Shown here: one piece after another, positions 2,558 through 62,878 of the stretch | How the letters are laid out: every line of letters begins with the position of its first letter | How positions within the stretch are numbered: the stretch's first letter is position 1 | Origin: an uncultured Gammaproteobacteria bacterium | Lineage (GTDB): Bacteria > Pseudomonadota > Gammaproteobacteria > Thiotrichales > Thiotrichaceae | Length of the DNA: 64,000 nucleotides | Direction: 5' to 3' | Assembly: GCA_963760355.1 (NCBI GenBank) | Contig: CAVXCT010000034.1 | Coordinates: 1,311-65,310, forward strand | The notes under the pieces: generated by a model | The model's database searches: none | Seen by the model: the letters and a program-made list of their open reading frames with translations, nothing else | What the model was told of the DNA's origin: nothing | Position numbers and translations under genes: made by a program

Positions 2558-2620
2558 ATTTCATGAGTCGTCCATTCCAAAAAATGAAATGGCAAGCTCA
2601 TGGAAAGTAGAGGGGTGACT
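2558..2620 (-). repeat. REP-like arm (degenerate) with outer hairpin
   Basis: aaagtagaggggtgac at 2604-2619, preceded by a catgag(2562-2567)/ctcatg(2597-2602) stem; lies between convergent genes. Confidence 0.6.
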
Positions 2621-2650
2621 AAATAACAGGACTATTTATCAGATTCTCAA

Positions 2651-3497
2651 TTAATTAGCCTGCATGCGATGTTTCAAGCGCTGCTTTCGACTTTCCTTCA
2701 TTTGCTGACGAAATGACAATAGTTTACTATATTGTTTTTGGTCTAAAACCGCTTCTATTTTCATTCGCATCTCGCCACTTTCAACAACCATTTGTTCAAC
2801 CCGTTTTGCATTCACGTCGGCTAAAGCAAAAATATCCGCTTTGTAACTTGGGCTGCGAGAGTCCATTGTATTTAATTGTTGATTGAATTCCAGAACCTCT
2901 TCACGTAATGGTTGCATTATTACTTCTTTTTCAACGATTAAAGCTTTGATTTCAGTAATTTGCTCAGTACTAAGAACTAGTTGATTCAGTTGAGGAGGAG
3001 GTAAACGTAAATGCCGAGCCAGGGTTCTTAAGTCTTGATTGTTGCTTTGATCAGATTTCTGTTTCTGCTTTCCCTGTTTATTACCATGCATTTGTTGGTA
3101 ATGTTCTTTATAACCCGCTGGCATATCAATTTCGCCATTGAAAATGTACTCGGCAATGATTTTGGCATCTTCTTTTGGAGCAGAGACTGGAGGCATTAAA
3201 TTAAAGTGTCTTATTGCACCAGGCATTAAGCTTTTATTGGCATCAGGTTTTTCTAACCAGCTAGTAACCGCATTGACAAAGGAATCTTTATCTTGATGCA
3301 CACTTAAATAATGCATTCTGACACCAGCAATAGGTGGAGCTATGCGCTTCTGCTTATTCATGCCGCCGGTAAGGCCATGACAGACCTTACAGTGTTGGTT
3401 AAAAAGTTTAGGCCTTTTGATATTTTGGTTTTATCTGCAAATGGAAACCGCAAAAGAAAATTACGGCTACTGCAATAACTGTTTTCAGCGCATACAT
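2651..3497 (-). CDS. Secreted c-type cytochrome fused to a Spy/CpxP-like helical domain, frameshifted near the 5' end
   Basis: ATG 3497 with signal-like leader; CKVCH heme motif at 3377-3391 in frame with the 2651..3361 ORF; APP..MP..MP pattern; C-terminal L(S/D)xxQ repeats (LSTEQ, LDQKQ). Confidence 0.7.
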
Positions 3498-3646
3498 AGA
3501 ACTTTATCCCCAACTAAGATAGAAACTCATATAGACTAAATGGAGACTAACTGCAGTGATAAATGCAAAAAAATTGATTTTATTCAATAATGACTTTGAG
3601 GGTAGAAAAGTAAAAACAAGCAACACTTCTCTGGGCATAGATATAT

Positions 3647-3673
3647 AAAACCCCCTAAAAGTAGGGGGGTGAC
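3647..3673 (-). terminator. REP-like arm that also forms an intrinsic terminator-like hairpin for the LysR gene
   Basis: Minus strand reads cccccta-cttt-taggggg-tttt just after the corrected LysR stop (3678-3680). Confidence 0.6.
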
Positions 3674-3677
3674 TTAT

Positions 3678-4615
3678 TTACATCTGAACCACTTTTTGCT
3701 TAGAATCTTGATAGCAGTCATTCATAATGTCGATAAAACGTTCTGCTGGCGTAGAAAGGAATTTACCCTTTCGTGTAACAATACCGTAAGCGTACGTTTA
3801 GGGAAATATTTGTCTAAAGGTATAACAGTGAGTTCTTTTCTATCATCTGCAGTAAGACAAACGTCGGTTACTATGGATATACCTAAACCAATCTTTACAT
3901 ATCGTTTAATAACTTCCCAGCCACCCGCTTCCAGATTGACTTTGTAATTTGTATTGTTTTGTGCAAATACCATTTTAACAATACGCCAGGTACTTAAATG
4001 ACGCGGCGGTAATATCAATCCATAAGGACTGATGTCTGCCAGTGTAATGTTCTTTAATTTAGAAAGAGGATGGTCTTTAGGTGCAATTAAAACAGGGTTG
4101 TAAGATACGATAGGTTTGGGTTCCATATCATCTGGAATCTCTAGCATAGAGCCAATTGCAATATCAATATCGTTATTTCTAAGCATTTCAAGGCCATCAC
4201 GACCTGTTTCATTGGCTAAGCGTAACTTAATTCCAGGGTATTCTGTGGTAAATCTTTGCACCGGTTCAGGTAGTACATATAGAATTGTAGATTCACCAGC
4301 AGCGATTGATAGTTCACCCGTGCTCATGTTGCCACAATGTGCGCTAAAGGTTTCATGTAGATGATCAACGTTTTGTACGAGCGGTTCTGCAAGGTCATAA
4401 AGGATTTTTCCTTCAACCGTTAGCATAATCTGAGGGCCATTACGTTCAAAAAGAGAAACCTCCATCTCTCTTTCTAATGCCTGTATTTGTAAAGATACAG
4501 TAGGTTGGCTGGCGAATAATTTCTCCGCGGCCTTAGTCACACTGCCATGTTTAGCTACCTGGCAGAATGCACGCAACGTTTTAAGCCTGTTTTGCTTATA
4601 GTAAATAGTAGTCAT
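3678..4615 (-). CDS. LysR-family transcriptional regulator (CysB/Cbl-like), frameshift near 3790
   Basis: N-terminal HTH (GSVTKAAEKLFASQPTVSLQIQALE); after FPKRT an alternate frame gives YGIVTRKGKFLSTPAERFIDIM...* ending 3678. Confidence 0.85.
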
Positions 4616-4884
4616 CTTTATCTCTTTTAGCGGGAAAAGTAATATTAAACACTGAATGCATTGAATAGTCTAATAATTAATTATTATTATAGTAAATTAA
4701 ATTGATAGTGTGTCTTTTAAATACTACTTATGAATCAATAAAATAATATAGATATATGATGAATGAAAAAATGTTTTTAATTTGAGTAAAAAGCGGAGTG
4801 TATATTCTTCCTGCTTATCAGTTTATACTCTGTTTTCCAAACTACACACGATAATATCTTTTATGGTTTTAAATGGAAAAGTAA

Positions 4885-5736
4885 ATGATAAATAGCCGTC
4901 ATCGAACTGTTTTTATTGTCTCAGAAAGTACCGGTATAACCGCTGAAACAATGGCACACAGCTTGTTATCACAATTTCCACATTTAGAATTTACCTATCA
5001 CCAGCGCTCATTCGTTGATAGTGAAAAAAAAGCACGTAAACTAGTAAAAGAGATTCATAACGTAGGTGAAAATCAAGGTTTTAAGCCACTGGTTTTTGCA
5101 ACTATGCCAGAAACACATATTAATGATATTTTAGCTTCGGCAAGTTGCCATTATTACGAAATATTTGAGAGCTTTGTTGATAAAATCGGACACGATTTAC
5201 ACACAGAACCAACGCGTGAATCAGGTTTAAGTCATGGTATGATCAACGATAAAACCTATGATGCACGAATTGAAGCGCTAAATTTCACTCTCAAACATGA
5301 TGATGCGATGGTATTAAAAACCATCGATCAGGCAGATATCATTATAATTGGTGTCTCTAGATCGGGTAAAACCCCCACTTCACTGTATTTAGCGTTGAAA
5401 TTTGGTATCAAAGTGGCAAATTACCCCATAACTGAAGATGACTTTGAAAAAAATGAGTTACCCCAGGTATTGCTGAATAATAGAAAAAAGATATTTGCAA
5501 CATCGATAAAAGCGAAACGACTTAAACAGATTCGTGAAAAGAGAATTCCAAATAGTGAATATTCATCTCTGCAGACCTGTAAAGATGAAATAGCTAAAGC
5601 TACTAAGCTTTATAAAAAGTATGGGTTTGTACCGATGGATGTAACCAAACGATCTATAGAAGAATTAGCCGCTCAGATCATAAAAGTTTTCAAAGGCAAA
5701 CAAGACATTACGTTATACCCCTCAAAGGATATTTAA
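4885..5736 (+). CDS. ppsR: PEP synthase regulatory kinase/pyrophosphorylase (DUF299)
   Basis: SESTGITAE, GVSRSGKTPTSLYLA; directly upstream of ppsA. Confidence 0.92.
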   Translation: MINSRHRTVFIVSESTGITAETMAHSLLSQFPHLEFTYHQRSFVDSEKKARKLVKEIHNVGENQGFKPLVFATMPETHINDILASASCHYYEIFESFVDKIGHDLHTEPTRESGLSHGMINDKTYDARIEALNFTLKHDDAMVLKTIDQADIIIIGVSRSGKTPTSLYLALKFGIKVANYPITEDDFEKNELPQVLLNNRKKIFATSIKAKRLKQIREKRIPNSEYSSLQTCKDEIAKATKLYKKYGFVPMDVTKRSIEELAAQIIKVFKGKQDITLYPSKDI

Positions 5737-5750
5737 AGGATTAATTATTG

Positions 5751-8113
5751 ATGAATACCTATAATGTGATCTGGTTAGATCAACTTGGCATAAATGATAT
5801 TGACAGCGTAGGGGGTAAAAACGCCTCTCTCGGTGAGATGATTCAAAATCTCGGTAATTTAGGGGGTGAATGTACCCGGAGGGTTTGCGACAACCGCTGA
5901 TGCCTATCGTGGATTTCTGGAGCACGAAAATCTTGGTAATAAAATCAATGCTTTATTAGATGAACTTGATGTAGACAATCTTGAAAGTCTAGCCAAAACA
6001 GGTAAGCAAATTCGTGACTGGATCATGCAGGTTCCATTGAAAGAAGACCTTGAAGATGATATCAATGCAGCCTATGCAAAACTGGTCGGACAATACGGTG
6101 AGGAGGTTTCATGGGCAGTTCGTTCGTCAGCAACCGCTGAAGATTTACCGGATGCGTCATTTGCAGGTCAACAAGAAACCTTCTTAAACGTTTCTGGTAT
6201 TGAAGACATCAAAGTAGCCATTCGTAAGGTTTTCGCATCATTATTTACTGATCGTGCTATCTCATACCGCGTCCATCAGAATTTTGATCATGCAGGCGTC
6301 TGCGTTGTCGGCGGGCATTCAGAAAATGGTTCGTTCAGACATTGCAGCCAGTGGTGTTATGTTTACGCTAGATACTGAAACAGGCTTTGATAAAGTAGTA
6401 TTTATCACTGGCAGTTATGGACTTGGTGAAATGGTGGTGCAGGGTGCTGTGAACCCTGATGAATTTTACGTTTATAAAAAGAACCTGACTGAAAACAAAC
6501 CGGCAGTACTCACACGAACACTAGGTAGTAAAGCGATACAAATGGTTTACGATATCGGTGGTGAAGAGCCCGTTAAAATCATCGATGTTGAAGCTGATAA
6601 ACAAACCAAATATTGCATAACGGATGAACAAGTTGAAGAACTGGCTAGACAAGCTGTCATTATAGAAAAACATTATAAACGCCCGATGGATATTGAGTGG
6701 GCGATGGATGGCAACGATGGAGGACTTTATATCGTTCAGGCTCGACCTGAGACTGTACAAAGCCAGGCGGGCAATGTTATTGAACGCTTTAACTTAAAAG
6801 AACAAGGACCGATTTTGTCAGAAGGACGCTCCATCGGTGGTCGTATTGGCGCAGGTACAGCACAAATCATCATGAGCCTTGATGATATGGATCAGATCAA
6901 GCCCGGCGATGTACTAGTTACAGATATGACAGATCCAGACTGGGAGCCAATTATGAAACGTGCCTCAGCCATAGTGACTAATCGCGGTGGACGTACCTGT
7001 CACGCAGCCATTATTGCACGTGAACTCGGCGTGCCCGCAGTGGTAGGTTGTGGCGATGCTACTGAGACCATCCCGGATAATGAAGATGTTACTGTATCCT
7101 GTGCCGAAGGCGATACTGGTTACGCTTATCAGGGTTTACTTAATTTTGAAGTTACCACAACTGAAGTTAATACCATGCCTGAGCTGGATTTAAAGGTCAT
7201 GATGAATGTTGGTAATCCAGATAAAGCCTTTGATTTCTGCCAGCTACCCAATAAGGGCATAGGTCTGGCTCGTATGGAATTCATCATTAATAATATGATT
7301 GGCATTCATCCGCGCGCATTGCTGGATTATGAACAACAATCAGATGAACTTAAATCAGAGATTGATCCGCGCATTTCAGCTTATGCAAGCCCACGAGACT
7401 TTTTCGTGCAAAAAATTGTTGAAGGTGTGTCTACCTTAGCCGCTGCTTTTTACCCACAACCAGTTATTTTGCGCATGTCGGATTTTAAATCGAATGAATA
7501 CGCAAATCTAATCGGCGGCACAGAATACGAGCCACATGAAGAAAACCCGATGATTGGTTTCCGTGGTGCAGTGCGTTATATCGATGAAACCTTCCGCCCG
7601 TGTTTCGAAATGGAATGCGAAGCGATTAAATACGTACGTGATGTGATGGGATTAACCAACATTGAAGTAATGATTCCGTTTGTACGCACATTGAAAGAAG
7701 CTAAAAGTGTGACTAAATTACTCGCTAAAAACGGTTTAGGGCGTGGTGAAAATGGTCTACGCCATATAATGATGTGCGAATTACCATCCAATGCTGTTTT
7801 AGCAGGTAAATTCCTTAAATATTTTGATGGATTCTCGATTGGCTCTAACGATATGACACAGCTGACATTAGGTCTGGATCGTGATTCTGGTCTAGTTGCT
7901 GAAAGCTTTGACGAGCGTGACCCTGCAGTTAAGAAAATGCTTAAAATGGCAATAAAGGCAGCGAAAAAGCAGGGAAAGTACGTTGGCATCTGTGGTCAAG
8001 GCCCTTCAGATCACCCAGACCTTGCAGAATGGTTAATGAAACAAGGAATCGATAGCGTCTCGCTAAATCCTGATACAGTAATTAATACCTGGAAACGTTT
8101 AGCGGCTAAATAA
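5751..8113 (+). CDS. ppsA: Phosphoenolpyruvate synthase, two +1 frameshifts
   Basis: ATG 5751 ([11 protein letters not shown]); shifts at G-run ~5861-5866 and at ~6300; [36 protein letters not shown]. Confidence 0.95.
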
Positions 8114-8141
8114 TTAAAAGTACACTCTGTTGCTTGTAAAT

Positions 8142-8253
8142 AAAAAAGGCTAAGCCGTAGCGTAGCAGAGACTACGCTGGAAAGCAGTGACGGCTGCCCG
8201 AAGGGCGTGTTTTTCATTTAAAATGATAAAAAACACCTAAAAGTAGGGGGGTG
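8142..8253 (-). repeat. REP-like arm plus module C (long outer hairpin module)
   Basis: Reverse complement aligns with 28059-28171 and 61378-61471: cacccccctactt, hairpin, gcccttcggg, hairpins, tagcc-T6. Confidence 0.85.
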
Positions 8254-8606
8254 TTATCAATAAGGGTCCCTTGTAAAGCCGTGCTCAGATCATAAAACTC
8301 CGTTTAAGGAAAAGAAGCCAAAGTTGTTAAACAATATCTGCTAGAGCAATATTTAATGCCTAAATCAAGATTTATTTACTGTGGTTGGGAAACTTTGGGT
8401 GGTGAAGGTATTTACAAATACCATGATTAATCTGTCAGGGTTACTATGAATTCTTCTGCAGGTTTAATTATAGGATAGGAATAAACGGGCAGATATACCA
8501 ATATTTATAATAGTAGCTACTGTGTACCTTGAAGACCCGTGAGTCTATGCATACAAAATCACAAGCAATTGAGAATAGTAAAATGAGCCTAATTACCAAA
8601 TAAGCT

Positions 8607-8634
8607 ATTTAACATAATATAGATTATGCGTACT
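8607..8634 (-). other. dif site (XerC/XerD recombination site)
   Basis: Minus strand AGTACGCATAA-TCTATA-TTATGTTAAAT versus E. coli dif GGTGCGCATAA-TGTATA-TTATGTTAAAT; XerD arm identical. Confidence 0.9.
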
Positions 8635-8703
8635 ATTAGTGCCTTCCGAAGTGTTGCTAATTAGGTTATTCTCAAAGATACAACACACTTACCATTAATT
8701 ATA

Positions 8704-9924
8704 TTAAACCTGCATCTTTAAAGGTATAGCCTCTCTAGCTAATAGTTCCGCCGTAGACATCGCTATCATGGCCCGTTCATTGATTGGGATGAAATGTACA
8801 TCGACTATAGATTGATCACTGCTTATTTTATGTAGACTACTTTCATTGGCAATATTATTTAACTCGACACCAAGCCAAGCTAATGGCTCACTTATTAATT
8901 TTCTAGTTAAATCCGAATTCTCACCAATGCCTGCAGTAAATACAATCGCGTCTATGCCTCTTAAAACGACTATCTGCGCACCAATTTCTTTTACAACTCT
9001 GTAGCAGAATAATTCATCGCTTCTGGCTTCTTTGGCTTCTGGATCAGAACTTTCTGCAAGTACACGCATATTGTTACTGATTCGTGAAACGCCTAATAAT
9101 CCTGATTTACGATATAAAATGTCTTGTACTTCATCCGCACTTGAACTTTTTTCATTTCTTAGGTCTATAACCAAACCCGCATCAGATTGAGCCGCTACGC
9201 GTGCCCATAACTAATCCATCTAATGTGCTAAAACCCATAATAGTCGCAACGCTACGTTTATTGTGCAGCGCACAAAAGCTTGCGCCATTACCAAGGTGAG
9301 CAAAAATTATCCGTCCATTCGCTTTATCACCTAAGTCCTTTGATAAGCGTGAAGCAATATATTGATAAGATATTCCATGAAAACAGTAACGAATAAGTCC
9401 ATCTTCAGAATATTTTCTGGGAATGGCATATATTTTCTCTAAACGACTTTGCGTATGATGAAAAGCAGTATCAAAACAGGCTCTTTGTGGTAATTCTGGC
9501 GAATGATCCCTAATTGTTTGTATCGCAAGCTAAGCAATGATGTTGATGCAATGGCGCAAGCGGAATATAACTCCTCATGGTTTCCATATTTTCATCGTTT
9601 ATAACGATAGGCTCATGGGACTCACTGCCTCCATGAACGACTCTATTACCAGCTGCTACAGGATGAAAAGCCACGTAACGACTGTATAAACGTTCTAGAA
9701 GATTAGTAATTAACCATACGTGAGTCCGCATCTTTAGGAATATGATCGAATGGTTCAGTGACTGTTAAAGCATTATCGCCTATGGAAGCAATCAGTTCTG
9801 GTTGTGTGCCAATACGTATAACTTTACCTTTAAGCAGTGGTTCTGTTAAATGTGAAGATACAGGACATGAAGCAAATTTTAAGCTTGATGAGCCTGAATT
9901 TACTACTAAAATGACATCAATCAT
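8704..9924 (-). pseudogene. ackA: Acetate/propionate kinase, three +1 frameshifts and substitutions in conserved motifs
   Basis: VILVVNSGSSSLKF; GNRVVHGG; APLHQ; ACFDTAFH; RYCFHGISY; AHLGNGAS; GTRSGSI; VFTAGIGENS, spread over four frame segments. Confidence 0.75.
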
Positions 9925-9972
9925 GGTTTGGGGTTTGCTTTTAAAAGAAGTGTATTTCGATATTAAGAAGTA

Positions 9973-9998
9973 CACCCCCCTACTTTTAGCGAGCTTTT
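9973..9998 (+). repeat. REP-like arm
   Basis: cacccccctacttttagcgagctttt, ~50 bp upstream of the ackA start. Confidence 0.8.
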
Positions 9999-10131
9999 CG
10001 TTTCGTTGCTTGAAACGTTAAACTCGTTTATTTGCATCAGCATTGAGCGGTTTTTATTATTTGAATAATCTTTAATCTGTTTTTATATTTTCTTAGATAA
10101 GCCTTGGATAAGTATTAGCTAAATATTTTTG

Positions 10132-10905
10132 TTATAGCTCAAATAGCCGATTAAAATTATCTGTCGAAACTTTAGCAATATGTGGATAGCTACAGCCGCG
10201 TAAGTCAGCCATCTTCTCTGCAACATGCTTCACATAGGCGGGTTGATTCGGTTTGCCACGTTTTGGTACAGGGGCTAACCACGGAGAGTCCGTTTCGATA
10301 AGAAACCTATCTTCAGGTACTTTCTTAGCTACTTCTTGTAACTCTTTGGCACTATTGAAAGAAACTATCCCTGAGAAAGAGATATAGAAATTAAGTTTCA
10401 TTGCTTGTTGTGCAGTTTCCCAGTCTTCTGCAAAACAATGCATGACACCCCCCACCTTTTGAGCATTTTCTTCCGCCAGGATACGTAACGTGTCTTCTTT
10501 GGCGGAACGGGTATGAATGATGAGTGGTTTCTGGGTTTTTATGGCTGCCCTTATATGCGTTCTGAATAGATCATGTTGCCAGGTCATATCGTCATCTTCG
10601 CATCTGAAATAATCGAGCCCTGTTTCCCCTATTGCAATAACTTCTTGGTGCTGAGTTAATTCCACTAACTCCTCAACTGTAGGAGCATACGAGTCTTGAT
10701 GAGTTGGGTGAACCCCAACAGAACAATAGATATTTGAATATTGTTGTGCCGGTTTCAATACGTCCTGGAAGTGTTCGGTATCAATACAAACACACAGAAA
10801 TTGGCTGACATCTGCTTCTTCAGCAACATCTACCATTTTCGAGAATTGGTTATCGAAAGGAGTTAAATCAATTTTGTCTAGATGACAGTGTGAATCGGTA
10901 AGCAT
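10132..10905 (-). CDS. TatD-family DNase
   Basis: DSHCHLD, GVHP, IGETGLD, IIHTR, GVMHCF, ETDSPWL. Confidence 0.93.
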   Translation of the reverse strand: MLTDSHCHLDKIDLTPFDNQFSKMVDVAEEADVSQFLCVCIDTEHFQDVLKPAQQYSNIYCSVGVHPTHQDSYAPTVEELVELTQHQEVIAIGETGLDYFRCEDDDMTWQHDLFRTHIRAAIKTQKPLIIHTRSAKEDTLRILAEENAQKVGGVMHCFAEDWETAQQAMKLNFYISFSGIVSFNSAKELQEVAKKVPEDRFLIETDSPWLAPVPKRGKPNQPAYVKHVAEKMADLRGCSYPHIAKVSTDNFNRLFEL

Positions 10906-16919: not shown

Positions 16920-17855
16920 TTATGTATTACAAGCTTCGAGTGCTTTATCTAAAGAAGCTGGGTCACTGACATAAAGACTACCGAGTGCTCGATTGATTCT
17001 TCTATTCAAACCAAACAAAACTTTACCAGGGCCAAACTCAATAATGGTATCCGCGCCTAGCGTCTTATTAAGACTTTTGATTGTATCTGTCCAGAACACA
17101 GGTTTGTAAAGTTGTTTCGCTAATGCTGCTTGTTTGTCAGCTGCAGATGCATAGCTTATCGCCTCGACATTCTGTATTACTTCAAACTCTGCATCGTTGA
17201 AGTTAGTGGCTAACAGGCTTGCACTTAATTGATTCGCAGCATCTTTCATTAGGCTGCAGTGCGAAGGTACACTTACTGGCAGTTTTATAGCGCGTTTAGC
17301 TCCTGCTTCTGATAATTTTTCAATCGCAACATCTACTGATGAAGTATTTCCTGCGATAACGACTTGACCAGGTGAGTTGAAATTAACAGCTTCTACAATA
17401 CCATCTGTTATCGATGAACAAATTTCAACAATTTGATTATCTTCTAAACCCAGGATAGCAGCCATCGCACCTTCACCAGCGGGAACCGCTTGTTGCATTA
17501 AACTAGCGCGTTTTGCGACGAGTTGCATAGCAGCTTTAAAATCTAGTACTCCTGAAGCTACTAATGCTGAATACTCTCCAAGACTATGACCCGCCATCCC
17601 GACTGGAGCACACCCCCCCACTTTTAGCCATAATTTCCAGACTGAAACACCAGCAGCTAACATCAGGGGTTGTGTATTTTCAGTTTTATTAAGTTCAGTG
17701 GCGTCTTCAGCTGTTGTCATTGACCACAAGTCTTTGCCAATTGCGTCTGAGGCTTCTTCAAAAGTCGCTTTTATTTCTGGGTATTCAGTTGCCAGTTCAC
17801 CTAACATACCGATTGCTTGAGACCCCTGCCCTGGAAAAACAGCTGCAAATTGCAT
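16920..17855 (-). CDS. fabD: Malonyl-CoA:ACP transacylase
   Basis: FPGQGSQ, GHSLGEY; start placed at MQFAAVF (17855). Confidence 0.95.
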   Translation of the reverse strand: MQFAAVFPGQGSQAIGMLGELATEYPEIKATFEEASDAIGKDLWSMTTAEDATELNKTENTQPLMLAAGVSVWKLWLKVGGCAPVGMAGHSLGEYSALVASGVLDFKAAMQLVAKRASLMQQAVPAGEGAMAAILGLEDNQIVEICSSITDGIVEAVNFNSPGQVVIAGNTSSVDVAIEKLSEAGAKRAIKLPVSVPSHCSLMKDAANQLSASLLATNFNDAEFEVIQNVEAISYASAADKQAALAKQLYKPVFWTDTIKSLNKTLGADTIIEFGPGKVLFGLNRRINRALGSLYVSDPASLDKALEACNT

Positions 17856-20223: not shown

Positions 20224-20287
20224 GCTGTGACTATAGGATAACGATGTTCAATAAACAACAATTCTAGTCGTCTATACTCTCCATTCT

Positions 20288-20313
20288 ACCCCCCTACTTT
20301 AGTGGCATTTTTT
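20288..20313 (+). repeat. REP-like arm
   Basis: acccccctactttagtggcatttttt in the aceK/glcB divergent region. Confidence 0.75.
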
Positions 20314-24762: not shown

Positions 24763-24787
24763 ATCCCAGAGTGTTATTTACGCCTAG

Positions 24788-25019
24788 AAAAATGGCCTAT
24801 AAGTAGGGGGGTGGCTTTATCTAGAATAAGCGTCTGACCCTGATCGAGTATTAAACATCGAAGATTCCTTGCCGAATCTACGATGGTCTTTTCTGGCTCT
24901 TGGTGAACGTTAAATCAAAATACTTTTGATGTTGAAATATTATTAGTAGATTAACGACTATTGCACAGCGGCTTTAGCTAAGTTTGGTAAAGCCACTCCC
25001 CTACTTTTAAGCAGTTTTT
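24788..25019. repeat. REPIN-like doublet (inverted arms) with internal modules B and D
   Basis: GTAG at 24803 and CTAC at 25001 on inverted arms; internals match 43881-43960 and 29972-30084; between convergent maeA and recR. Confidence 0.85.
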
Positions 25020-25039
25020 CTTTAATTAATTATTTTTGA

Positions 25040-27994: not shown

Positions 27995-28058
27995 GGGAGA
28001 ATCATAAATGAATCAGACGAATAACAATAGTAAAATCAGGCATTTCAAGAGATAAAAT

Positions 28059-28171
28059 GCCACCCCCCTACTTTTACATGGTTTTTTAATTTAGCCTAAT
28101 GAAAACCATGCCCTTCGGGTCATCGTCATGCTTCCGATGTTGTCTCTCTAACGTTCGGCTAGGCACTTTTT
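28059..28171 (+). repeat. REP-like arm plus module C
   Basis: gccacccccctactt, catggtttt/aaaaccatg stem, gcccttcgggt, ..., ggctaggcacttttt; between ffs and dnaX. Confidence 0.85.
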
Positions 28172-28230
28172 CTTATTACTCATGAAATTAATAATTGAGG
28201 AAGAAGAAGATTCGAATAATTAAATTCGTT

Positions 28231-37576: not shown

Positions 37577-37657
37577 TTAACTTCCATAGAATTATCAATA
37601 TAAACAGATGCTTTATAGGTATTTCTGTTAAATATTGTGAACCAAGGAGTTTATTGA

Positions 37658-37685
37658 CACCCCCCTACTTATAGCCAGTTTTTTT
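37658..37685 (+). repeat. REP-like arm
   Basis: 37653-37677 is identical over 25 nt to the reverse complement of 62830-62854. Confidence 0.85.
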
Positions 37686-41625: not shown

Positions 41626-43830
41626 TTGCAGATACCAAACATAATGAACAATACGAAAATGAAACTTAAATTCCCATTTTTGAATACTTTTTTAAAGTAC
41701 TCATTGTTCACAGTCATGCTTTCAATAACTTCTGGTTGTTTAGGAACACCACCTGCCGGGACTTCTTTAATTGAGTCTGCAAATGCTGCTGAAAAAACAG
41801 AAACAAGCCTTGAGCAACTAACGCCAAGACATACGTTTGAATACAAAATTATCAATAGTATGTTGAAGCGCTATCATTATAAGAAGTTTGAGCTAAATGA
41901 TGCTTTTTCTGGAGAGATACTCGATCAATATATAAAACAACTTGATCCAAGCCGTATTTATTTCACCCAGGCGGATATTGATCAATTTAACCAACACCGT
42001 GATAAATTTGATGATTATATTAATGCGGGTGAAACCGAAGTAGCGGTAAATATTTTCAAGAAATATCAGCAACGTGTCAATGAACGCTCTAAATATGCGA
42101 TCAAGCGTCTCAATCAAAAAATCGATTTCAATAAAGACGAAGACTACAATCTAGATCGTGAAAAAGCGAGATGGGAAGTTAATGAAACAGCTTTGAATAT
42201 GCTTTGGGACAAGCGTATAAAAAATGAATACATCAATCAAATACTCTCTGATGAGAAGCCTGCAAAAGTCATAGACAAACTGAATAAGCGTTATGCCAGT
42301 ATGACTAAGAGAACCAACCAGATAAAAAGCAATGAATTATTTCAGACTATTGTAAATGCTTATGCAGGTGCAATAGAACCACATACATCTTATCTATCAC
42401 CTCGTTCGTCTGAGCAATTTGATATAAATATGAGTCTATCCCTTAGTGGTATAGGTGCAGTCCTTAGAACAGATGAAGAACATACTAAAATTATTAGTGT
42501 CGTTCCAGGTGGGCCAGCTGATCTAACAGGCAAAATATCAGCAGGAGATAGAATTATTGGTGTTGGTCAAAAAACTGAAAAAAGTATTAAAGATATCGTT
42601 GGTTGGCGCTTAAGCGATGTAGTTAATATTATTCGTGGTAAAAAAGGCAGCACAGTCGTTTTGTCAGTATTGCCTAACGAAACTGGTTTAAGTGGTAATG
42701 CTAAGACAGTTAAAATTGTGAGGGATAAAATTAAACTTGAACATCAGGCAGCAAGTAAAAGAATCATTGAAATAGAAAGGCCAGAAGGGAAAGTAAAGGT
42801 TGGTGTTATTGATCTACCTTCTTTTTATATTGATTTTAAAGCCCGTAATCGCGGTGATGCTGAATACGCAGGAACCACCCGTGATGTTAAAAAACTGCTA
42901 ATTGAATTAAACAAAGAAGGAATCGATGATTTGATTATTGATCTGCGTGGTAACGGTGGTGGATCATTAAGTGAGGTTGTTTCATTGACTGGTTTATTTA
43001 TCGATCAAGGCCCTGTAGTGCAAATCAATGACACCACAGGAAGAACTGATATATTGCGCGATAATGATTCTGAAGTTGCCTACAGCGGCCCGATGGCCGT
43101 ATTAATCGATAAAGGTAGCGCTTCAGCGTCTGAAATATTTGCAGGAGCAATACAGGATTATAAACGTGGTGTGATTATAGGTGAAACCACATTTGGTAAA
43201 GGTACGGTTCAAACTGTGTTACCACTTGAGTCTTACACCCGTAAAACCTTTGATAAACCTTTAGGTCAGATCAAAATTACTAGCGCTCAGTTCTTCCGTA
43301 TAAATGGTGAAAGCACACAACACAAAGGTGTGGTGCCTGATTTATCGTGGGATTTACCACAAGTAGAAGGTGATTTAGGAGAGCGCGCATTTAAGAATGC
43401 TCTTCCTTGGAGACGCATTGAAATGGCTAAGCATAAAGACTATCAAAAAGCATTTGGCGTTACAGCTCTTCAACAAGCGAGAGCAAAGTCAGCAGAACGT
43501 ATTACCAATGATCCTAAATTCAAAACAACGGTTGCTAGAGTAAAACTGTTAGTGGATGCCGGCAATGAAAAGGTCGTTTCTCTTAATTTGAACAAACGAA
43601 AAGCCAAGCGAGCTGATTTTAATAAGCAATTATTAGCTCTTGAAAATAACCTGCAAAAGGCAAATGGTTTGCCAGCGTACAAAACCATTAAAGAATTACG
43701 TGATGCACAAGAAAAGAAAAACGATGATATCTTTACAAAAAAGCCTGTTGATGTTTTCCTGAATGAAGCAGCGCATATATTGACTGATTTACAAAAATAT
43801 AATGTTATGGCTGCAGACGCTAATAAATAA
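41626..43830 (+). CDS. prc: Carboxy-terminal processing (tail-specific) protease
   Basis: PHTSYLSP, PDZ domain, IIDLRGNGGG, SASASEIFAGAIQD, GKGTVQ; exact start uncertain. Confidence 0.93.
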   Translation: MQIPNIMNNTKMKLKFPFLNTFLKYSLFTVMLSITSGCLGTPPAGTSLIESANAAEKTETSLEQLTPRHTFEYKIINSMLKRYHYKKFELNDAFSGEILDQYIKQLDPSRIYFTQADIDQFNQHRDKFDDYINAGETEVAVNIFKKYQQRVNERSKYAIKRLNQKIDFNKDEDYNLDREKARWEVNETALNMLWDKRIKNEYINQILSDEKPAKVIDKLNKRYASMTKRTNQIKSNELFQTIVNAYAGAIEPHTSYLSPRSSEQFDINMSLSLSGIGAVLRTDEEHTKIISVVPGGPADLTGKISAGDRIIGVGQKTEKSIKDIVGWRLSDVVNIIRGKKGSTVVLSVLPNETGLSGNAKTVKIVRDKIKLEHQAASKRIIEIERPEGKVKVGVIDLPSFYIDFKARNRGDAEYAGTTRDVKKLLIELNKEGIDDLIIDLRGNGGGSLSEVVSLTGLFIDQGPVVQINDTTGRTDILRDNDSEVAYSGPMAVLIDKGSASASEIFAGAIQDYKRGVIIGETTFGKGTVQTVLPLESYTRKTFDKPLGQIKITSAQFFRINGESTQHKGVVPDLSWDLPQVEGDLGERAFKNALPWRRIEMAKHKDYQKAFGVTALQQARAKSAERITNDPKFKTTVARVKLLVDAGNEKVVSLNLNKRKAKRADFNKQLLALENNLQKANGLPAYKTIKELRDAQEKKNDDIFTKKPVDVFLNEAAHILTDLQKYNVMAADANK

Positions 43831-43835
43831 ATGCA

Positions 43836-43981
43836 TATAAGTAGGGGTGGCAATAAATTTATATTGGCATTTTATTTAGCTCGATCATTGTACATCGACG
43901 GTTCCTAACGGAATCTACTATGTACTTTTCTGGCTCTTGGTGAGCCTAGAAAAGCCACCCCCCTACTTTTAGCCTGTTTTT
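43836..43981. repeat. REPIN-like doublet with module B
   Basis: GTAG at 43841 and CTAC at 43963 on inverted arms; two internal hairpins (43890-43925, 43925-43954); between convergent prc and dgkA. Confidence 0.88.
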
Positions 43982-44014
43982 ATTTTATCAAACATTAATT
44001 TTGCTGAAACTAGG

Positions 44015-44417: not shown

Positions 44418-47306
44418 TTATCTATAGCTTTCAATAGAAGGACAAGAGCATACCAAATTACGGTCGCCGTACACATTATCTATACGATTAACTGTAGGCC
44501 AATACTTACTGGTTGCAATGACACCCTTAGGCATAACTGCTGTTTCCTGTGAATACGGCCGATCCCAGTTTTCAGAAATATCAAATATAGTGTGAGGTGC
44601 ATTAACCAAAGGATTATTGTCCACAGACCAAATACCTGTTTGAACATTATTGATCTCTTCTCTGATCGCTATCATTGCTTCACAGAAGCGATCTAACTCA
44701 TATTTAGATTCTGATTCTGTTGGCTCGATCATTAGTGTGCCAGCGACAGGAAATGACATTGTGGGCGCATGGAAGCCATAGTCCATCAATCGTTTGGCGA
44801 TATCTTCCTCAGTAATTCCGGAGTCATGTTTTATTGGGCGAATATCGATGATACATTCGTGAGCCACCCGACCATTCTTGCCTCTATATAAAACTGGATA
44901 ATGAGGTGCCAATCGCTCGGTGATGTAATTAGCGTTGAGGATCGCCATTTTACTTACTTCTGCATTACCCTTAGCACCAAGCAGCTTCATATACATCCAT
45001 GAAATAGTCAGGATAGAAGCACTACCGAAAGGAGCCGCTGATACGGCATGAGTTTTATTATCAGTGTTTTTAATGTGGCCTGGTAAAAATGGTACCAAAT
45101 GGCTACGAACACCTATTGGACCTACTCCAGGTCCGCCACCACCGTGAGGTATAGCAAAGGTTTTATGTAGATTAAGATGTGAAACATCAGAACCAAATAA
45201 CCCAGGCTTACACAGGCCTTTCTGAGCATTTAAGTTGGCACCATCAAGATAAACTTGACCACCACAATTGTGGATGATCTCGCACATTTCAACGATTCCT
45301 TCCTCAAACACACCGTGAGTAGATGGGTAGGTAACCATGATGCAAGCTAGGTCATCTTTGTGAGCTTCTGCCTTTTCACGTAAGTCTTTTAAATCAACAT
45401 TACCGTTTTCATCACAATCCACTAAGACAATTTTCATTCTTGCCATGGCTGCTGATGCTGGATTGGTGCCATGAGCAGATGTAGGGGTTAAACAAATATT
45501 ACGATGCCCCTGCCCTATGCTTTTATTGTAACGGTTAATAGCAACAAGACCCGCGTATTCACCTTGGGCACCTGAATTCGGTTGCATAGAAACTGCTGCA
45601 TAGCCTGTTACTTCAGATAACCACTCTTCCAATTGATCGATCATTTCATAATAGCCGTCGGTTTGATCACGTGGAGCAAAAGGGTGAATATTCGAAAATT
45701 CTGACCAGCTAAGAGGCATCAATTCACTCGCTGCATTTAACTTCATCGTGCAAGACCCTAAAGGAATCATTGCATGAACTAGAGATAAATCTTTGTTTTC
45801 AAGACGTTTTAAGTAACGCATCATTTCAGTTTCTGTTTGATGCTGCTTGAAAACTTCATGAGTGAGGTATGTAGTTTCACGTTGATAGGCTTCTGGAATA
45901 CCTGATTCACAATTACCATTGATGATTTGCTCATCAAGCTGACTAACTGTTAGACCATGGCCATTGCCAAAGAAGATATCAAATAAATCTTGAAGATCAT
46001 TAGCGGTTTTGGTTTCATCAAAACTCACACCGAGTTTATCTGAATCAACTAAGCGTAAATTAATACCTTTACTTAAAGCTGCATCATAAAAATCCTGTTG
46101 ATGGTCTCCAACATAAATAGTTAATGTGTCAAACCAAGATGTATTTACAATATATTCTGCTTTAGACAGGTCACTTTGACGGACAGCTGCAGCAAAAATA
46201 CTGGTTAAACGATTGATTCTTGATGCAATTCGCTTGAGTCCTTCAGCGCCATGATATACCGCATAAAAACCAGCCATATTAGCCAACAACGCCTGTGCAG
46301 TACAAATATTGGATGTTGCTTTGTCACGGCGAATATGTTGTTCACGAGTCTGCATAGCCATACGCAGACCTTGATTGCCACGAGAGTCAACGGATACACC
46401 TATGACACGTCCAGGAACAGAACGTTTTAGTTTGTCTCGTACAGCGAAAAAAGCAGCATGAGGTCCACCAAAGCCCATTGGAACTCCGAATCTTTGAGAG
46501 CTTCCAAAAACAATATCTGCACCCATTTCACCCGGTGCCTTTAATAACACTAAAGACATTAAGTCAGCTGCTACACAGACTAATGCTTTTTGATCATGTG
46601 CCTGAGTGATTATGGATTCGATATCAGTGACAGATCCAGTTGTTCCAGTGTATTGAAGCAGAACACCAAATACTTCGTGATTTTCTAATTCATCTTGAGG
46701 GTTACCAATGATTAATTCAAAACCAAAATATTGGGCACGTGTCTTCAATACTTCTAGAGTTTGAGGAAAGACTTCTTCATCCACAAAGAATTTATCTGTT
46801 TTTAGACGATTAGATCGTTTACATAAAGCCATGGCTTCAGCTGCTGCTGTCGCTTCATCGAGTAATGAAGCGTTTGCCATATCCATGCTAGTTAAATCCA
46901 TGACCATTTGCTGAAAGTTGAGTAAACCTTCCAAACGGCCTTGTGATATTTCAGCCTGGTAAGGTGTATATGCTGTATACCATCCTGGGTTTTCTAATAC
47001 ATTACGCTGAATTACGGGTGGTACGATGGTGTCGTAGTACCCCATTCCAATAAATGATTTATTTACACTGTTTTTATTAGCTATACCACGCAGAGTGTCT
47101 AAAGCTTCTCTTTCAGAGCAACTATCGTCAAGTTTAAGTGGCTCTCTGATTCGGATACTTTCAGGTACCGTTTTATCAGCTAATTCATCAAGAGATGAAA
47201 CCCCAATTACTTCTAACATTTCTGAAATGTCTACTGTTTGAGGTCCTATATGACGAGAGATGAACTCATCATGCTGATCTAAATTATCTAGTGGTAAGTT
47301 TTTCAT
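44418..47306 (-). CDS. gcvP: Glycine dehydrogenase (P protein)
   Basis: [42 protein letters not shown]. Confidence 0.97.
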
Positions 47307-48959: not shown

Positions 48960-49212
48960 AAAAAAAAGGGGCGGCAGATTCTATGATCTGCCGCCCCCTC
49001 TGTCCTTGTACCTGAGAGAGTCCCTAAATCTACTAATAAATCTGTAATTTAGGTTAAACCCTTCGGTGGAAACTTTGTTTCACTCTCCAGAGTCAGTGTT
49101 TTTTTCTGCAGTCCTTTTACCTGAGCGTTTCCGAGCGGATTTGCGCCTTCGGTGTTCGACATCTTTAAAGTTAACCCTTAGCTAACTTAATGTTTGCCGA
49201 ATCTCTCCTGCA
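48960..49212 (-). promoter_or_regulatory. Tandem glycine riboswitch with terminator expression platform
   Basis: Aptamer 1 ggagag...caccgaaggcgcaa...ctcaggt; aptamer 2 ctctggagag...caccgaagg...ctctcaggt...acagag; then ggggcggcagat/atctgccgcccc plus T-run upstream of gcvT. Confidence 0.95.
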
Positions 49213-49282
49213 TAAAATTTAACTGAATTTTGAACTATACCTCAGCTTGAGTTAATGAGAAAGTAATTTAATAGATAACAAA

Positions 49283-55673: not shown

Positions 55674-55712
55674 GGAGGTGTATATACACCCCCGTACTTT
55701 TAAGCTGTTTTT
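55674..55712. repeat. Minimal REP-like doublet
   Basis: ggaggtgtat/atacaccccc hairpin followed by gtacttttaagctgttttt; between convergent genes. Confidence 0.65.
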
Positions 55713-55767
55713 AAAATTAATTTTAAAATCTTAAGTTAGATTACTAAGCCTTATTAATGATACTAAT

Positions 55768-59801: not shown

Positions 59802-60087
59802 TTCTATAAATTCCTAGTTGAGGCCGTATGCCTATACCGTTTTTAGTTTGCTTAGGCAGAAGTGTCAAGCCAGAGCCACTAAGTTCATCAATTAAATTTA
59901 AATACAGATGATTAAATGTTCATAAATTAATAACAGTATTAATATGATTAATAATACACCACCCTATTTACAGCGTATTTGTTAACTGTTTATTAGTAAT
60001 TAAAACCACAATTTCGGACAATTACCTGTATCTCTTTTCAATAAACAATATACTACTGAGCCTGATAAATAGTCATAAAATTTAGCA

Positions 60088-61284: not shown

Positions 61285-61377
61285 AGAATTTATATAATAT
61301 TCAGAAATAATAAAGCGCTCAAAAATTAGCACTTTTTTATTTACAGGAGAATGAATCATTCAGTTTGATAGAAAAAT

Positions 61378-61471
61378 CACCCCCCTACTTATTACGTGTT
61401 TTTAACTTAAATTAATGAAAACACGCCCTTCGGGTTATTGTCTCGCCAAAAGGCTCGACTGGCTATTTTTT
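61378..61471 (+). repeat. REP-like arm plus shortened module C
   Basis: cacccccctactt, cgtgtttt/aaaacacg stem, cccttcgggt, ..., ctggctatttttt; between convergent dapC and dapD. Confidence 0.85.
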
Positions 61472-61482
61472 ATCGTTACTTA

Positions 61483-62382
61483 TTAATCGTTGCTATGCAG
61501 ACTGCTGTTTAAACCACCCCAGACTGAAGAGTCACTGGTAATTGCTTCTACTGCACCTGTTTGACTGTGTCTTCTAAATAACAAACCTGACTGACCTGAT
61601 AGTTCACGTGCCGATACAATATTCCCATCAGGTGTTTTAACTTTTGTGCCGGCAGTTAAATAAAGGCCAGACTCCACAATGCAGTCATCACCCAAAGATA
61701 TGCCAAGACCCGCATTTGCACCTAATAGGTTTCTTTTACCCATTGATACTACTTGCTTACCACCACCAGATAAGGTTCCCATGATAGAAGCACCGCCACC
61801 TATGTCAGAATTTTCACCCACGATAACACCCGCGCTAATACGGCCTTCCACCATTGAATCACCCAATGTTCCGGCATTAAAGTTTACGAAACCTTCATGC
61901 ATTACGGTAGTGCCTGAGGCTAAATGTGCACCCAGGCGAATACGGTCAGCGTTACCGATACGAACGCCTTCTGGGATTACGTAGTCTGTCATGCGTGGGA
62001 ATTTGTCGATTGAGGTTACATTTAATTGGTGATTTTCATCGGCGATCAAACTACGTAGTTTTTCAACTTCACCCGGTAATACAGGTCCTGCTGAGGTCCA
62101 GGCTACATTAGCCAATAAACCGAAAACCCCATTCAAGTTTAAACTATTTGGCTTGACTTCGCATTCAGATAACAAATGTAAACGTAAATAGGCTTCTTCG
62201 ACTGATTCAGGAGCATCGTCTAGAGATTCTATTTCAACTTCAACAAAATCACTTTTTAACATGCCAACTTTTAATGCCAGGCAGCTTCTTGCGATTTCTT
62301 TATTGGAACGCGGAAACCAGGTATCTATAGTTTTGCCGCTAGATGCATCAGTATATCGATGCCCTATTCGTTTAATTGTCAT
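61483..62382 (-). CDS. dapD: Tetrahydrodipicolinate N-succinyltransferase
   Basis: AYLRLHLLS, DKFPRM, RLGAHLASGTTVMHEGFVNFNAGT, GLYLTAG. Confidence 0.93.
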   Translation of the reverse strand: MTIKRIGHRYTDASSGKTIDTWFPRSNKEIARSCLALKVGMLKSDFVEVEIESLDDAPESVEEAYLRLHLLSECEVKPNSLNLNGVFGLLANVAWTSAGPVLPGEVEKLRSLIADENHQLNVTSIDKFPRMTDYVIPEGVRIGNADRIRLGAHLASGTTVMHEGFVNFNAGTLGDSMVEGRISAGVIVGENSDIGGGASIMGTLSGGGKQVVSMGKRNLLGANAGLGISLGDDCIVESGLYLTAGTKVKTPDGNIVSARELSGQSGLLFRRHSQTGAVEAITSDSSVWGGLNSSLHSND

Positions 62383-62542
62383 ATGTATCTCACTAAGCTT
62401 GAAATGTTGTTAAAAAATAATAGCAGGGAAGTATACAGATTCTTAGGTTCAACGTGGATAGTTTTGCATAAAATCTCTGGTTTAAATCATTACTCTGATA
62501 AACTTTGAGCTTATTTTCACCGTGATTAAAAGAGATAAATTA

Positions 62543-62824
62543 ATGTTGAACGTAAATGAATATTTTGAAGGAAAAGTTAAATCAATTGCCTATCAAACAG
62601 AAACACTACCCGCTTCTGTAGGCGTAATGTCAATCGGTGAGTATGTTTTCAATACTGCTGATAAGGAAACGATGATTGTAATTACAGGAGCGTTAGAAAT
62701 AACATTTAAAGATGCGGCTGAATCACAAACATTTAAAGCGGGTGAATCTTTCGATGTCGAGGCAAACAGTTCTTTTGATGTGGTAGTCAAGCAAGAAACG
62801 GCTTATCTTTGTACTTATGGTTGA
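62543..62824 (+). CDS. ppnP: Pyrimidine/purine nucleoside phosphorylase (DUF1255)
   Basis: NVNEYFEGKVKSI, SVGVM..GEY.F.T, F.V.ANSSF, AYLCTY. Confidence 0.92.
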   Translation: MLNVNEYFEGKVKSIAYQTETLPASVGVMSIGEYVFNTADKETMIVITGALEITFKDAAESQTFKAGESFDVEANSSFDVVVKQETAYLCTYG

Positions 62825-62853
62825 AAAAGTGGCTATAAGTAGGGGGGTGTCAA
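62824..62853 (-). repeat. REP-like arm
   Basis: aaaaagtggctataagtaggggggtgtcaa directly after the ppnP stop. Confidence 0.85.
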
Positions 62854-62878
62854 TTTATTATTAAGAACATTGGAAATA

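Follow-up and report, generated by a model that had tools for sequence, protein, structure and literature searches.

An abundant, strand-polar intergenic unit in Cocleimonas and its relatives: a possible chromosome-polarity signal

Canonical repetitive extragenic palindromes (REPs) follow a simple structural rule, in which a GT[AG]G tetranucleotide lies 0–2 nt 5′ of a hairpin whose fully paired stem is at least 7 bp long (PMC6006769). FtsK-orienting polar sequences (KOPS) are predicted from a frequency of at least one copy per 40 kb and a skew of ~90% in the dif region (PMC3384302). In the IS110 family of insertion sequences (IS), a guide RNA picks the target, and several of these elements target REPs (PMC11208160, PMC11187229, PMC1525189). 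Here we describe a repeated DNA unit that shares features with all three systems. It was found in a 64,000-nt stretch of a gammaproteobacterial chromosome with ~38% GC (hereafter the window) and was compared with stretches of DNA from the related clade, the genus Cocleimonas and its allies (numbered loci L007 to L190). A preliminary description of the window had listed about 13 intergenic loci that share a common arm and had assigned them to a REP family of the kind linked to a REP-associated tyrosine transposase (RAYT), with inverted doublets (REPINs) and interchangeable modules.

All 13 of these loci are present in the arrangements claimed. Solo arms and inverted doublets with GTAG facing outward (arms at 24801−/24994+ and 43839−/43956+) were confirmed, as were additional modules at 8138–8215, 28087–28176, 29972–30155 and 61404–61480. 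The arm contains a 13-bp core, CACCCCCCTACTT in its C-form, or 5′-AAGTAGGGGGGTG-3′ when read as the G-form. The core occurs nine times exactly in the window and 17 times with up to two mismatches (mean of 0.70 and maximum of 3 in dinucleotide shuffles). A consensus built from 259 cores with no more than one mismatch, in 852 kb of related DNA, reads AAAAG(T/A)-CACCCCCCTACTT-(T/A)TAGGCAC-TTTTT. The unit is thus ~32 bp long, with a weaker context of ~19 bp around the core. The same 259 instances confirmed the tail proposed earlier, as (T/A)TAGGC..TTTTT, and contain the tail subfamilies GGCAC and GCCTG.

To map its distribution, an extended pattern was scanned against one genome per bacterial species (185,579 genomes). 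At least 101 stretches matched, and all of the matches listed belong to Cocleimonas or allied metagenome-assembled genomes (MAGs), namely C. flava DSM 24830, Cocleimonas sp. 4-1410, three MAGs and two bins labelled ‘uncultured Gammaproteobacteria’. The core is identical in nine genomes; the exact form dominates in each, and genome-specific variants were not found. Among 80 metagenomic loci of other gammaproteobacteria, collected as DnaX relatives to serve as negative controls, the exact core was absent. Non-coding DNA held 241 matches, compared with 0.14 for permuted motifs. The dense, lineage-specific and mostly intergenic family that had been proposed is therefore borne out by the scan, the negative controls and the permuted motifs, and its enrichment extends well outside the window.

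Copy number was estimated from sequence that had not been picked via the motif, the window together with L187–L189 (122 kb). Its 37 matches correspond to ~1 per 3.3 kb, which implies ~1,000 copies per 4.4-Mb genome and agrees with the hundreds predicted before. Copies are intergenic or otherwise non-coding in 93% of cases, and about a quarter of the units form inverted doublets. Single units lie near gene 3′ ends, at a median of 50–64 bp from the stop codon, and are enriched in convergent and depleted in divergent spacers. This placement may follow from the cost of a six-G run in coding sequence at 38% GC. In L190, a distant ‘Cocleimonas’ MAG whose DnaX is 63% identical, the unit is absent from 21.8 kb, where a related C-run/T-run word is present. 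Such lineage ‘dialects’ read CACCCCCCTCCTTTTT..GTTTTG in L182–L184 and GGCACCCCCCGTGTTTTTA in L190. No similarity to the unit was found in E. coli, and a literature search for the motif or for Cocleimonas repeats returned a description of neither. The feature is real, abundant and clade-specific, and apparently undescribed so far.

The syntenic neighbourhood of dnaX allowed individual sites to be followed across four species: that of the window, L187 (an ENA contig), L188 (Cocleimonas sp. 4-1410) and L189 (Cocleimonas sp. KMM 6892). The window species stands apart, with ~71% DNA identity to the nearest loci and a DnaX 73–79% identical to its closest relatives. All six units that the window has from 17.6 to 37.7 kb (with the doublet taken as one) keep their place and strand in the other three. 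Across 27 orthologous cores we counted 11 mismatches in 351 positions, a core identity of 97%, where the flanks had diverged. On the head side, each core adjoins orthologous DNA that can be aligned, such as the dnaX leader; on the tail side, each species has an insert of its own or lacks one. Further orthologous pairs elsewhere in the loci agree with a fixed position. One seeming absence, in L009 relative to position 982 of L007, proved by eye to be a decayed unit. The presence/absence polymorphism between relatives anticipated by the preliminary description was consequently not seen in this 22-kb block, whose units are fixed in all four species. Sediment metagenomes, at ~3x coverage and in short contigs, gave no information on strain-level polymorphism. 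The orthologous comparisons indicate that the units are old and fixed and that the modules are the mobile part.

The motif also occurs inside genes, an aspect that the preliminary description did not cover. Long open reading frames (ORFs; 646 kb) contain 18 matches with no more than one mismatch, compared with 0.21 for permuted motifs. Most are a stop-free A-to-G variant, AAGTGGGGGGGTG. Among runs of six Gs in ORFs, 19 of 33 are of the motif type, often followed by the unit tail ..GCCTAAAAGT and an A-run. The host genes encode PolB, a UmuC-like polymerase, RecD, CmoB, an NlpC/P60 protein, GlyS, a ferredoxin-type protein, FabD and probably a TatD-family DNase, and among them the motif occurs on either strand and in each of the three phases. 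An alignment of FabD with solved structures is gap-free at the motif (..WKLWLKVGGCAPVGMAGHSLGEY.. against ..WRVWQEKGGKAPSLMAGHSLGEY..), and its rare GGG GGG codons are retained in four species. In the NlpC/P60 protein, the motif codes for YKWGG at the start of the domain, within a Pfam match that covers the domain and has no large gaps. The UmuC-like loop AKKTPKSGGV parallels what we take to be the E. coli sequence, AKKWQRQTGGV. Peptides that the motif can encode are written in the motif form in 3 of 8 cases for SGGV, 3 of 4 for KWGG, 3 of 5 for VGGC and both of 2 for HPPT, where codon usage predicts at most 0.035. PolB and RecD are longer than their E. coli counterparts at the motif, by 10 and 16 residues, respectively. 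Transposition could not have made the FabD, NlpC/P60 and UmuC-like copies, because they involve no insertion and use rare codons. Copies that arose by substitution call for selection or drive that acts on the sequence of the DNA.

Units also appear to follow the direction of replication. In the window, the three leftmost units lie on the minus strand and nearly all others on the plus strand, with the switch between 8253 and 9973. A 450-bp non-coding stretch in this interval holds a dif-like XerCD site, ATTTAACATAATATAGATTATGCGTACT (8607–8634), at which the unit orientation switches. It agrees at 25 of 28 positions with the reverse complement of what we take to be the E. coli dif sequence (0 expected by chance), and its XerD arm is identical to that of E. 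coli. The replication terminus thus probably lies within the window. The G-form is directed at dif in 15 of the 17 matches (3 of 3 on the left and 12 of 14 on the right; binomial p ~0.002), as it is in 11 of the 12 intergenic single units, a test that draws on one genome with three units on the left arm. Neither the strand polarity nor the dif-like site had been noted before, and no dif-like site was found in the other loci.

The related loci show the same polarity at the level of neighbouring copies. Adjacent single units are co-oriented in 90 of 115 pairs (90:25, p = 8e-10), which implies a skew of ~87%, and same-orientation runs extend along contigs, for instance NODE_7, NODE_10, NODE_11 and NODE_2 of strain 4-1410. 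With the units masked, the strand that carries the G-form is also the G-rich strand (135,179 G versus 128,964 C), and individual loci agree with this assignment in 55 cases and disagree in 31 (p = 0.015). In-gene copies follow the local polarity by 8:2. Near dif, the fine-scale GC skew is noisy and dominated by gene orientation, so the case for a link to replication depends chiefly on dif, the aggregate skew and the contig runs. Canonical KOPS, GGGNAGGG, occurs seldom and shows little skew (15:9 in 669 kb), and no other strongly skewed octamer was detected in these 669 kb of loci and the window. The unit itself is over-represented, is skewed towards the leading strand within the ~75–90% range and converges on dif, with 17 matches in 64 kb where at least one per 40 kb is required.

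A selected polar signal fits the fixed sites, the protected core, the convergence at codon level and the polarity towards dif when these are taken together. We tentatively favour the view that the host maintains the unit as a replichore-polar DNA signal of the class of KOPS, Chi and the architecture-imparting sequences (AIMS), carried on a REP-like unit. In its fuller form, which we put forward with the same reserve, Cocleimonas and its relatives would possess a previously unrecognised chromosome-polarity signal, with a dif-pointing leading-strand core, codon choice inside genes and lineage dialects. It would be read by FtsK, RecBCD or another fork- or terminus-directed machine, would replace the KOPS or Chi words and would double as a landing pad for IS110-family elements. 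Under this proposal, a DNA-tracking machine that needs the direction of the terminus would read the unit, whose core would sit on the leading strand and be directed at dif on both chromosome arms. Selection at each site would keep the core intact, and in-gene copies would fill long gene-dense stretches.

FtsK would be the most likely reader, in a KOPS-like guidance towards dif for XerCD dimer resolution. We favour it because of the convergence on dif, the likeness of AAGTAGGG to GNGNAGGG and the scarcity of canonical KOPS. The first eight bases of the unit, AAGTAGGG, match seven of the eight in GNGNAGGG, which we take to be the FtsK recognition sequence; this is a resemblance only. In L. lactis, canonical KOPS has been displaced by a different motif, and here canonical KOPS is likewise scarce and poorly skewed. 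The unit resembles KOPS, SpoIIIE recognition sequences (SRS) and AIMS in being over-represented, leading-strand, G-rich and dif-converging; its skew of ~80–90% and its density near dif, far above one per 40 kb, agree with published criteria (PMC3384302). It differs from them in length (a 13-bp core with ~19 bp of context, as opposed to 7–8 bp for KOPS), in its 93% intergenic placement, in the quarter of copies that form doublets, in a common variant that alters a conserved A, and in serving as an IS target.

RecBCD, with a Chi-like role for the unit, would be the second candidate. As with Chi, the unit is G-rich, leading-strand and skewed, occurs about once per 3–5 kb and has inverted copies that would be harmless; RecD is encoded in the clade. 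Known Chi sequences, in contrast, measure 5–8 nt, lie mostly in genes and lack an extended flanking consensus, and the unit is unlike GCTGGTGG. Separately, GNTGGTGG, of the E. coli/H. influenzae Chi family, occurs 136 times in 669 kb, ~4-fold above the base-composition estimate and with no skew (70:66).

Several observations weigh against a polar signal. The known KOPS and Chi words are 5–8 bp long and mostly found in genes; here ~30 bp are constrained, in-gene copies included, and 93% of the copies are intergenic. In the quarter of units that form inverted doublets, one copy points the ‘wrong’ way, which fits poorly with guidance of FtsK. AAGTGGGGGGGTG, a variant that genes often carry, alters the A that E. 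coli KOPS requires. Replication polarity itself depends on one dif-like site, a noisy GC skew and contig-level runs, and the runs have exceptions: NODE_4 of CANLZW changes orientation twice, and the contigs of C. flava show a mixture. The tail subfamilies (GGCAC, GCCTG) and the doublets resemble products of copying. Finally, the additional residues in PolB (10) and RecD (16) are what in-frame insertions would give, so some in-gene copies may be insertions.

These same observations suit a different history, which we regard as possible but rather unlikely. In it, an atypical REP-like element would have spread as single-stranded DNA (ssDNA), through a Y1 transposase of the HUH class acting on the lagging-strand template, and its copies, the present units, would now be mostly old and immobile. 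Coupling to the replication fork would fix the orientation, doublets would be REPIN-like, and in-gene copies would be in-frame loop insertions. Such fork coupling is documented for IS200/IS605 elements and for RAYT relatives (PMC6006769), and the polarity of the unit agrees with it; GTAG lies on the lagging-strand template, as for a Y1 substrate. The ~30 bp of common sequence with tail subfamilies, the position near gene 3′ ends with depletion in divergent spacers, and the extra length of PolB (+10 aa) and RecD (+16 aa) where the motif lies also fit, and the clade does have a RAYT. REPs are known IS110 targets (PMC1525189, PMC11208160). Atypical REPs that lack GTAG and have little structure are also on record, as are in-frame insertions of REPs into genes.

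Folding and the transposase itself speak against this history. Single units fold weakly (0 to −2.9 kcal/mol, z −1 to +0.8), compared with −8.1 kcal/mol (z −4) for the canonical REP beside the clade RAYT. Long hairpins arise in inverted doublets only; tail-to-tail and head-to-head doublets both fold strongly, which the ssDNA history would accommodate. The single unit thus has the GTAG of a REP without its hairpin. When 799 ORFs from 0.87 Mb of clade DNA were searched with a crude HUH/Y pattern, one Y1 transposase was found, at 2823–3377 of L092 (Cocleimonas sp. 4-1410), and no further Y1 signature. It is a RAYT (NF047646, ‘REP-associated tyrosine transposase’, 190 bits against a cut-off of 80), and the window contains none, as had been stated. 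Its upstream flank carries a canonical REPIN (GGTAGGTTGGGCTGACGCTAGGAAGCCCAAC ... GTTGGGC..CCCAACCTAC). At five loci with homologues of this RAYT (78–82% identical), a canonical REPIN of the form GGTAGGTTGGGC...GCCCAAC lies on both sides; this REPIN is otherwise rare in our loci, and at L092 only the upstream copy is left. The clade RAYT therefore belongs to another REP family. The preliminary description had suggested looking for a RAYT gene flanked by the arms; the one RAYT in this 0.87 Mb has the GGTAGGTTGGGC REPIN on its upstream side and, 70 bp downstream, a unit. The RAYT with a canonical REPIN, seen at 2700–3470 of L092 and in L182–L186, belongs to a family that is widespread in marine gammaproteobacteria, with homologues 65–70% identical.

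Turnover and conservation are also hard to reconcile with ssDNA spread. Across the four species, copies in the 22-kb block were neither gained nor lost, and the core is 97% identical where neutral DNA has diverged. One core is common to nine genomes, whereas REPs are normally species-specific, and the FabD, NlpC/P60 and UmuC-like copies arose without insertion, via rare codons. High copy number and 93% non-coding placement do hold for the unit as for REPs; species specificity and the gain and loss of copies do not. More broadly, the unit resembles REPs, bacterial interspersed mosaic elements (BIMEs) and the REPIN–RAYT system in being short, abundant, mostly extragenic near 3′ ends and marked by GTAG, in occurring as singlets and inverted doublets, in joining other motifs in BIME-like mosaics, and as a target of the IS110 family. 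It departs from them in lacking a hairpin in the single unit and a cognate RAYT within the 0.87 Mb of clade DNA, in keeping one sequence over many species with no turnover seen, in its replichore polarity and in its codon-level in-gene copies. Of the earlier REP reading, GTAG, the doublets and the density stand, and folding, RAYT, turnover, polarity and in-gene convergence speak against it. By the features tested, the unit is outside the canonical RAYT–REP family, and the assignment to a RAYT-linked REP/REPIN family was not upheld. A mobile origin and a host-maintained polar signal can be combined, with the host function acquired later.

Drive, rather than selection, could also have made copies by substitution. 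A DNA uptake signal, like the uptake signal sequences (USS) of Pasteurellaceae or the DNA uptake sequences (DUS) of Neisseriaceae, would spread and repair its copies through uptake preference and recombination (molecular drive). We consider this improbable here, despite a considerable likeness. The unit shares with USS and DUS an invariant core with weaker AT-rich flanks, some 10^3 copies per genome (~1,000, from density), dialects in sister lineages (L182–L184 and L190) around a core that is otherwise uniform across the genus, conserved site positions, and inverted pairs at gene ends that resemble terminators. Its copies within genes, produced by substitution where peptides are permissive, in three phases and on both strands, fit as well, and three of about ten lie in genome-maintenance genes (PolB, UmuC-like, RecD). 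Uptake, in contrast, leaves the strong replication-strand polarity unexplained; to our knowledge, this is no trait of USS or DUS. The unit also has a longer core, its 93% intergenic placement is a bias far above that of USS or DUS, and we know of no competence in the Cocleimonas group. If an uptake signal were nevertheless the correct explanation, this would be the third bacterial lineage with DNA uptake sequences.

The position of the units behind genes raises the further idea that they are intrinsic terminators or RNA-level 3′-end elements, whose sequence is common through descent. A T-run lies 8 nt past the core, many copies are 30–60 nt past stop codons, and the copy at 3634–3677 and the doublets form hairpins followed by T-runs. 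Orientation, however, is independent of the flanking genes: in co-directional spacers, single units are 44 times sense and 45 times antisense. Most single units have no stem, and several of the conserved copies precede the start of a gene (dnaX, aceK and the RND operon). A simple terminator scan found the canonical hairpin terminators of the genome and did not report the units. No head–tail covariation was detected, mutual information being high only for adjacent tail positions, which reflects the subfamilies. In Rfam, where the preliminary description had proposed to look for an already described RNA family, unit and modules remained unmatched; the window gave only the signal recognition particle (SRP) RNA and a glycine riboswitch, and five module-rich loci gave nothing. 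We therefore regard termination as very unlikely, and assign the remaining weight to something other than the polar signal, ssDNA spread, uptake or termination.

Three smaller candidates were rejected. An RNA structure is contradicted by the absence of covariation, and a T8-to-C variant is uncompensated at its would-be partner. A conserved stop codon or mini-ORF in the tail does not agree with the codons seen: TAG is common, yet among the remaining triplets TGG is as frequent as TGA. An outward promoter from GGTGACA was, by eye, unconserved across orthologues.

If the unit is indeed a host-maintained polarity signal, it would join REP-like intergenic repeats with the polar ‘architecture’ motifs (KOPS, Chi, AIMS), usually treated in separate literatures, and would suggest that an AT-rich genome may encode G-rich polarity words through dedicated spacer units. 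It would also offer a testable case of DNA-level selection overriding codon usage and even residues (FabD, NlpC/P60, UmuC-like), and a natural, invariant target of ~1,000 copies for a bridge-RNA-type IS110 recombinase. As a practical marker, it would serve to orient contigs and to locate ori and ter in MAGs of the clade.

The modules next to the units have a separate origin, which the preliminary description had not recognised. L047 and L052, from the MAG MFD03551.bin.2.100, contain two copies of an IS110-family element that are 98.9% identical. The copy in L047 (5127–6440) has an ORF at 5408–6352 that matches PF01548 (DEDD_Tnp_IS110) and PF02371 (Transposase_20), and the copy in L052 (6758–7383) is truncated by another sequence at 7383. 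Both start past a core, with CTACTT, ~12 nt and then ATGCGGCT..CCTTCGG... The left end and the right end (..AAAACGTAAATAGCATTTATGCAGAGC) recur alone behind many cores. At position 982 of L007, for example, the core is followed by TGAATGATATT, ACGTTTTTG..AAAAACGTAAATAGAATTTATGCAGAGC and TAAGGCTTTTTTTT. The ‘CCCTTCGGG’ modules of the window (8138, 28087, 30093 and 61404) share CTTCG and GTCTC blocks and a terminal T-run with the IS110 left end, at a mean column identity of 58%.

Element and miniatures thus occupy one defined position of the unit, the junction of core and tail, in one orientation. The unit thus serves as a landing site for an IS110-family element and its miniatures. The mix-and-match architecture is therefore mostly the result of nested site-specific insertion into an abundant, invariant target. 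The neighbouring modules described before do exist; they are not parts of the element and are largely IS110-family insertions into the unit. The insertion of IS621 and other IS110/IS1111 elements into REPs by bridge or seek RNA is a close parallel, as element and miniatures lie here between CTACTT and the tail in one orientation. The target differs in not being a palindromic REP, and the likeness is that of element and insertion position. A second, two-hairpin module (ATTCC..GGAAT, then GGCTCTTGGTGAGCC) adjoins the unit head in several species, and small hairpin modules lie between head-to-head arms. A non-coding repeat of 300–600 bp with a long GGATGAAGG...CCTTCATCC hairpin was seen at 3934–4530 and 5272–5585 of L042 and at 6873–7417 of L019; it begins exactly at the unit head and has no Rfam match.

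Along the window, the first unit (2580–2623, −; core 2605–2617, CACCCCTCTACTT, one mismatch) lies 34 nt past the stop of ORF 2651–3361, on the left side of dif with its G-form on the plus strand. The second (3634–3677, −; exact core 3659–3671) is 3′ of a LysR-family gene (3722–4615), and its tail pairs by chance (CCCCCTA/TAGGGGG, then TTTT). The nearest unit to the left of dif (8138–8259, −; exact core 8241–8253) carries a module at 8138–8215 that resembles the IS110 left end (CCCTTCGGG...GTCTC...TTTTT). The nearest to the right (9967–10010, +; exact core 9973–9985) has its C-form on the plus strand. Two in-gene copies follow, both on the plus strand. The first (10446–10458) is the variant CACCCCCCACCTT, with a unit-like tail TTGAGCATTTTC, in a probable TatD-family DNase gene (10132–10905); with two mismatches it is less certain, although the same variant was found repeatedly in the clade. 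The second (17611–17623) lies in fabD, where TGGCTAAAAGTGGGGGGGTG codes for W-L-K-V-G-G-C and is kept in four species.

The divergent spacer between glcB and aceK holds a unit (20281–20312, +; core 20287–20299, TACCCCCCTACTT) whose place and orientation are common to four species. Between a recR homologue and a malic-enzyme gene, a head-to-head doublet (24776–25031; arms 24801–24813, −, and 24994–25006, +) encloses a 180-bp inner module, where the inter-arm gap is 13–32 bp in other species. A unit with a module (28055–28176, +) has its exact core (28061–28073) ~70 bp 5′ of the dnaX start and an IS110-end-like module at 28087–28176; its head-side sequence is kept in four species and its tail side is unlike in each. 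The unit at 29924–30155 (+; core 29930–29942, one mismatch) contains a composite insert made of the two-hairpin module, a degenerate core (30080–30092) and an IS110-end-like piece, and the orthologous sites in other species have the unit alone.

Further right, a unit 5′ of an RND-pump operon (37652–37683, +; exact core 37658–37670) has orthologues in L063, L187 and L189. A head-to-head doublet after prc (43826–43987) combines a degenerate arm, AAGTAGGGGTGGC (43839–43851, −), with an exact arm (43956–43968, +) and an inner two-hairpin module (43881–43955). A unit at 55681–55712 (+; core 55687–55699, CACCCCCGTACTT) lies in a convergent spacer. A degenerate unit, CACCACCCTATTT (59957–59969, +; two mismatches), is 5′ of dapC, and a unit with a module (61372–61480, +; exact core 61378–61390; IS110-end-like module 61404–61480) is 3′ of the same gene. 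The last unit (62825–62855, −; exact core 62837–62849), with an orthologue in L071, is the only single unit of the window directed away from dif.

Some side observations concern individual sites in the related loci. In C. flava (L007, 3214–4293), two directly repeated units flank a LysR-family gene, where a related MAG (L009, 2858) has one unit and no gene; either a deletion via unit–unit recombination or a gene inserted between units would explain the difference. In L187 (13027–13067), both arms of the recR/malic-enzyme doublet share a complementary change (AAGTATGGGGGTG / CACCCCCATACTT), which suggests intra-palindrome conversion or selection for pairing. L190 has three tandem copies of a ~190-bp repeat (9400–9990) upstream of dnaX, where other species have the unit with IS110-type modules. 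A highly conserved leader beside an orthologous unit in L041 (3600–3800) and L046 looks, by eye, like a thiamine pyrophosphate (TPP) riboswitch (..CTGAGA..CTGATCTGGATAATACCAGCG..); these two genomes are 90% identical over the whole 7.9-kb locus, far above their usual level.

The named genes of the window include ppsA, aceK, glcB, the malic-enzyme gene, dnaX, prc, dapC, gcvP and sucA/sucB; four window proteins have no exact database product on record. Beside dif, the match of an ORF at 8704–9174 (−) to acetate kinase is limited to the C-terminal third (Pfam positions 251–391 of 392), and this ORF appears to be a truncated ackA remnant. At the left end (1–2500), several genes look split or frameshifted by eye, among them a dihydroorotate-dehydrogenase-like protein apparently divided between 1400–1942 and 2066–2491; these could be MAG assembly errors or pseudogenes. 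The SRP RNA (28240–28336, −) lies between the unit with its module and the next gene, and the glycine riboswitch (49099–49220, −) is upstream of the glycine-cleavage genes, with gcvP at 44418–47306.

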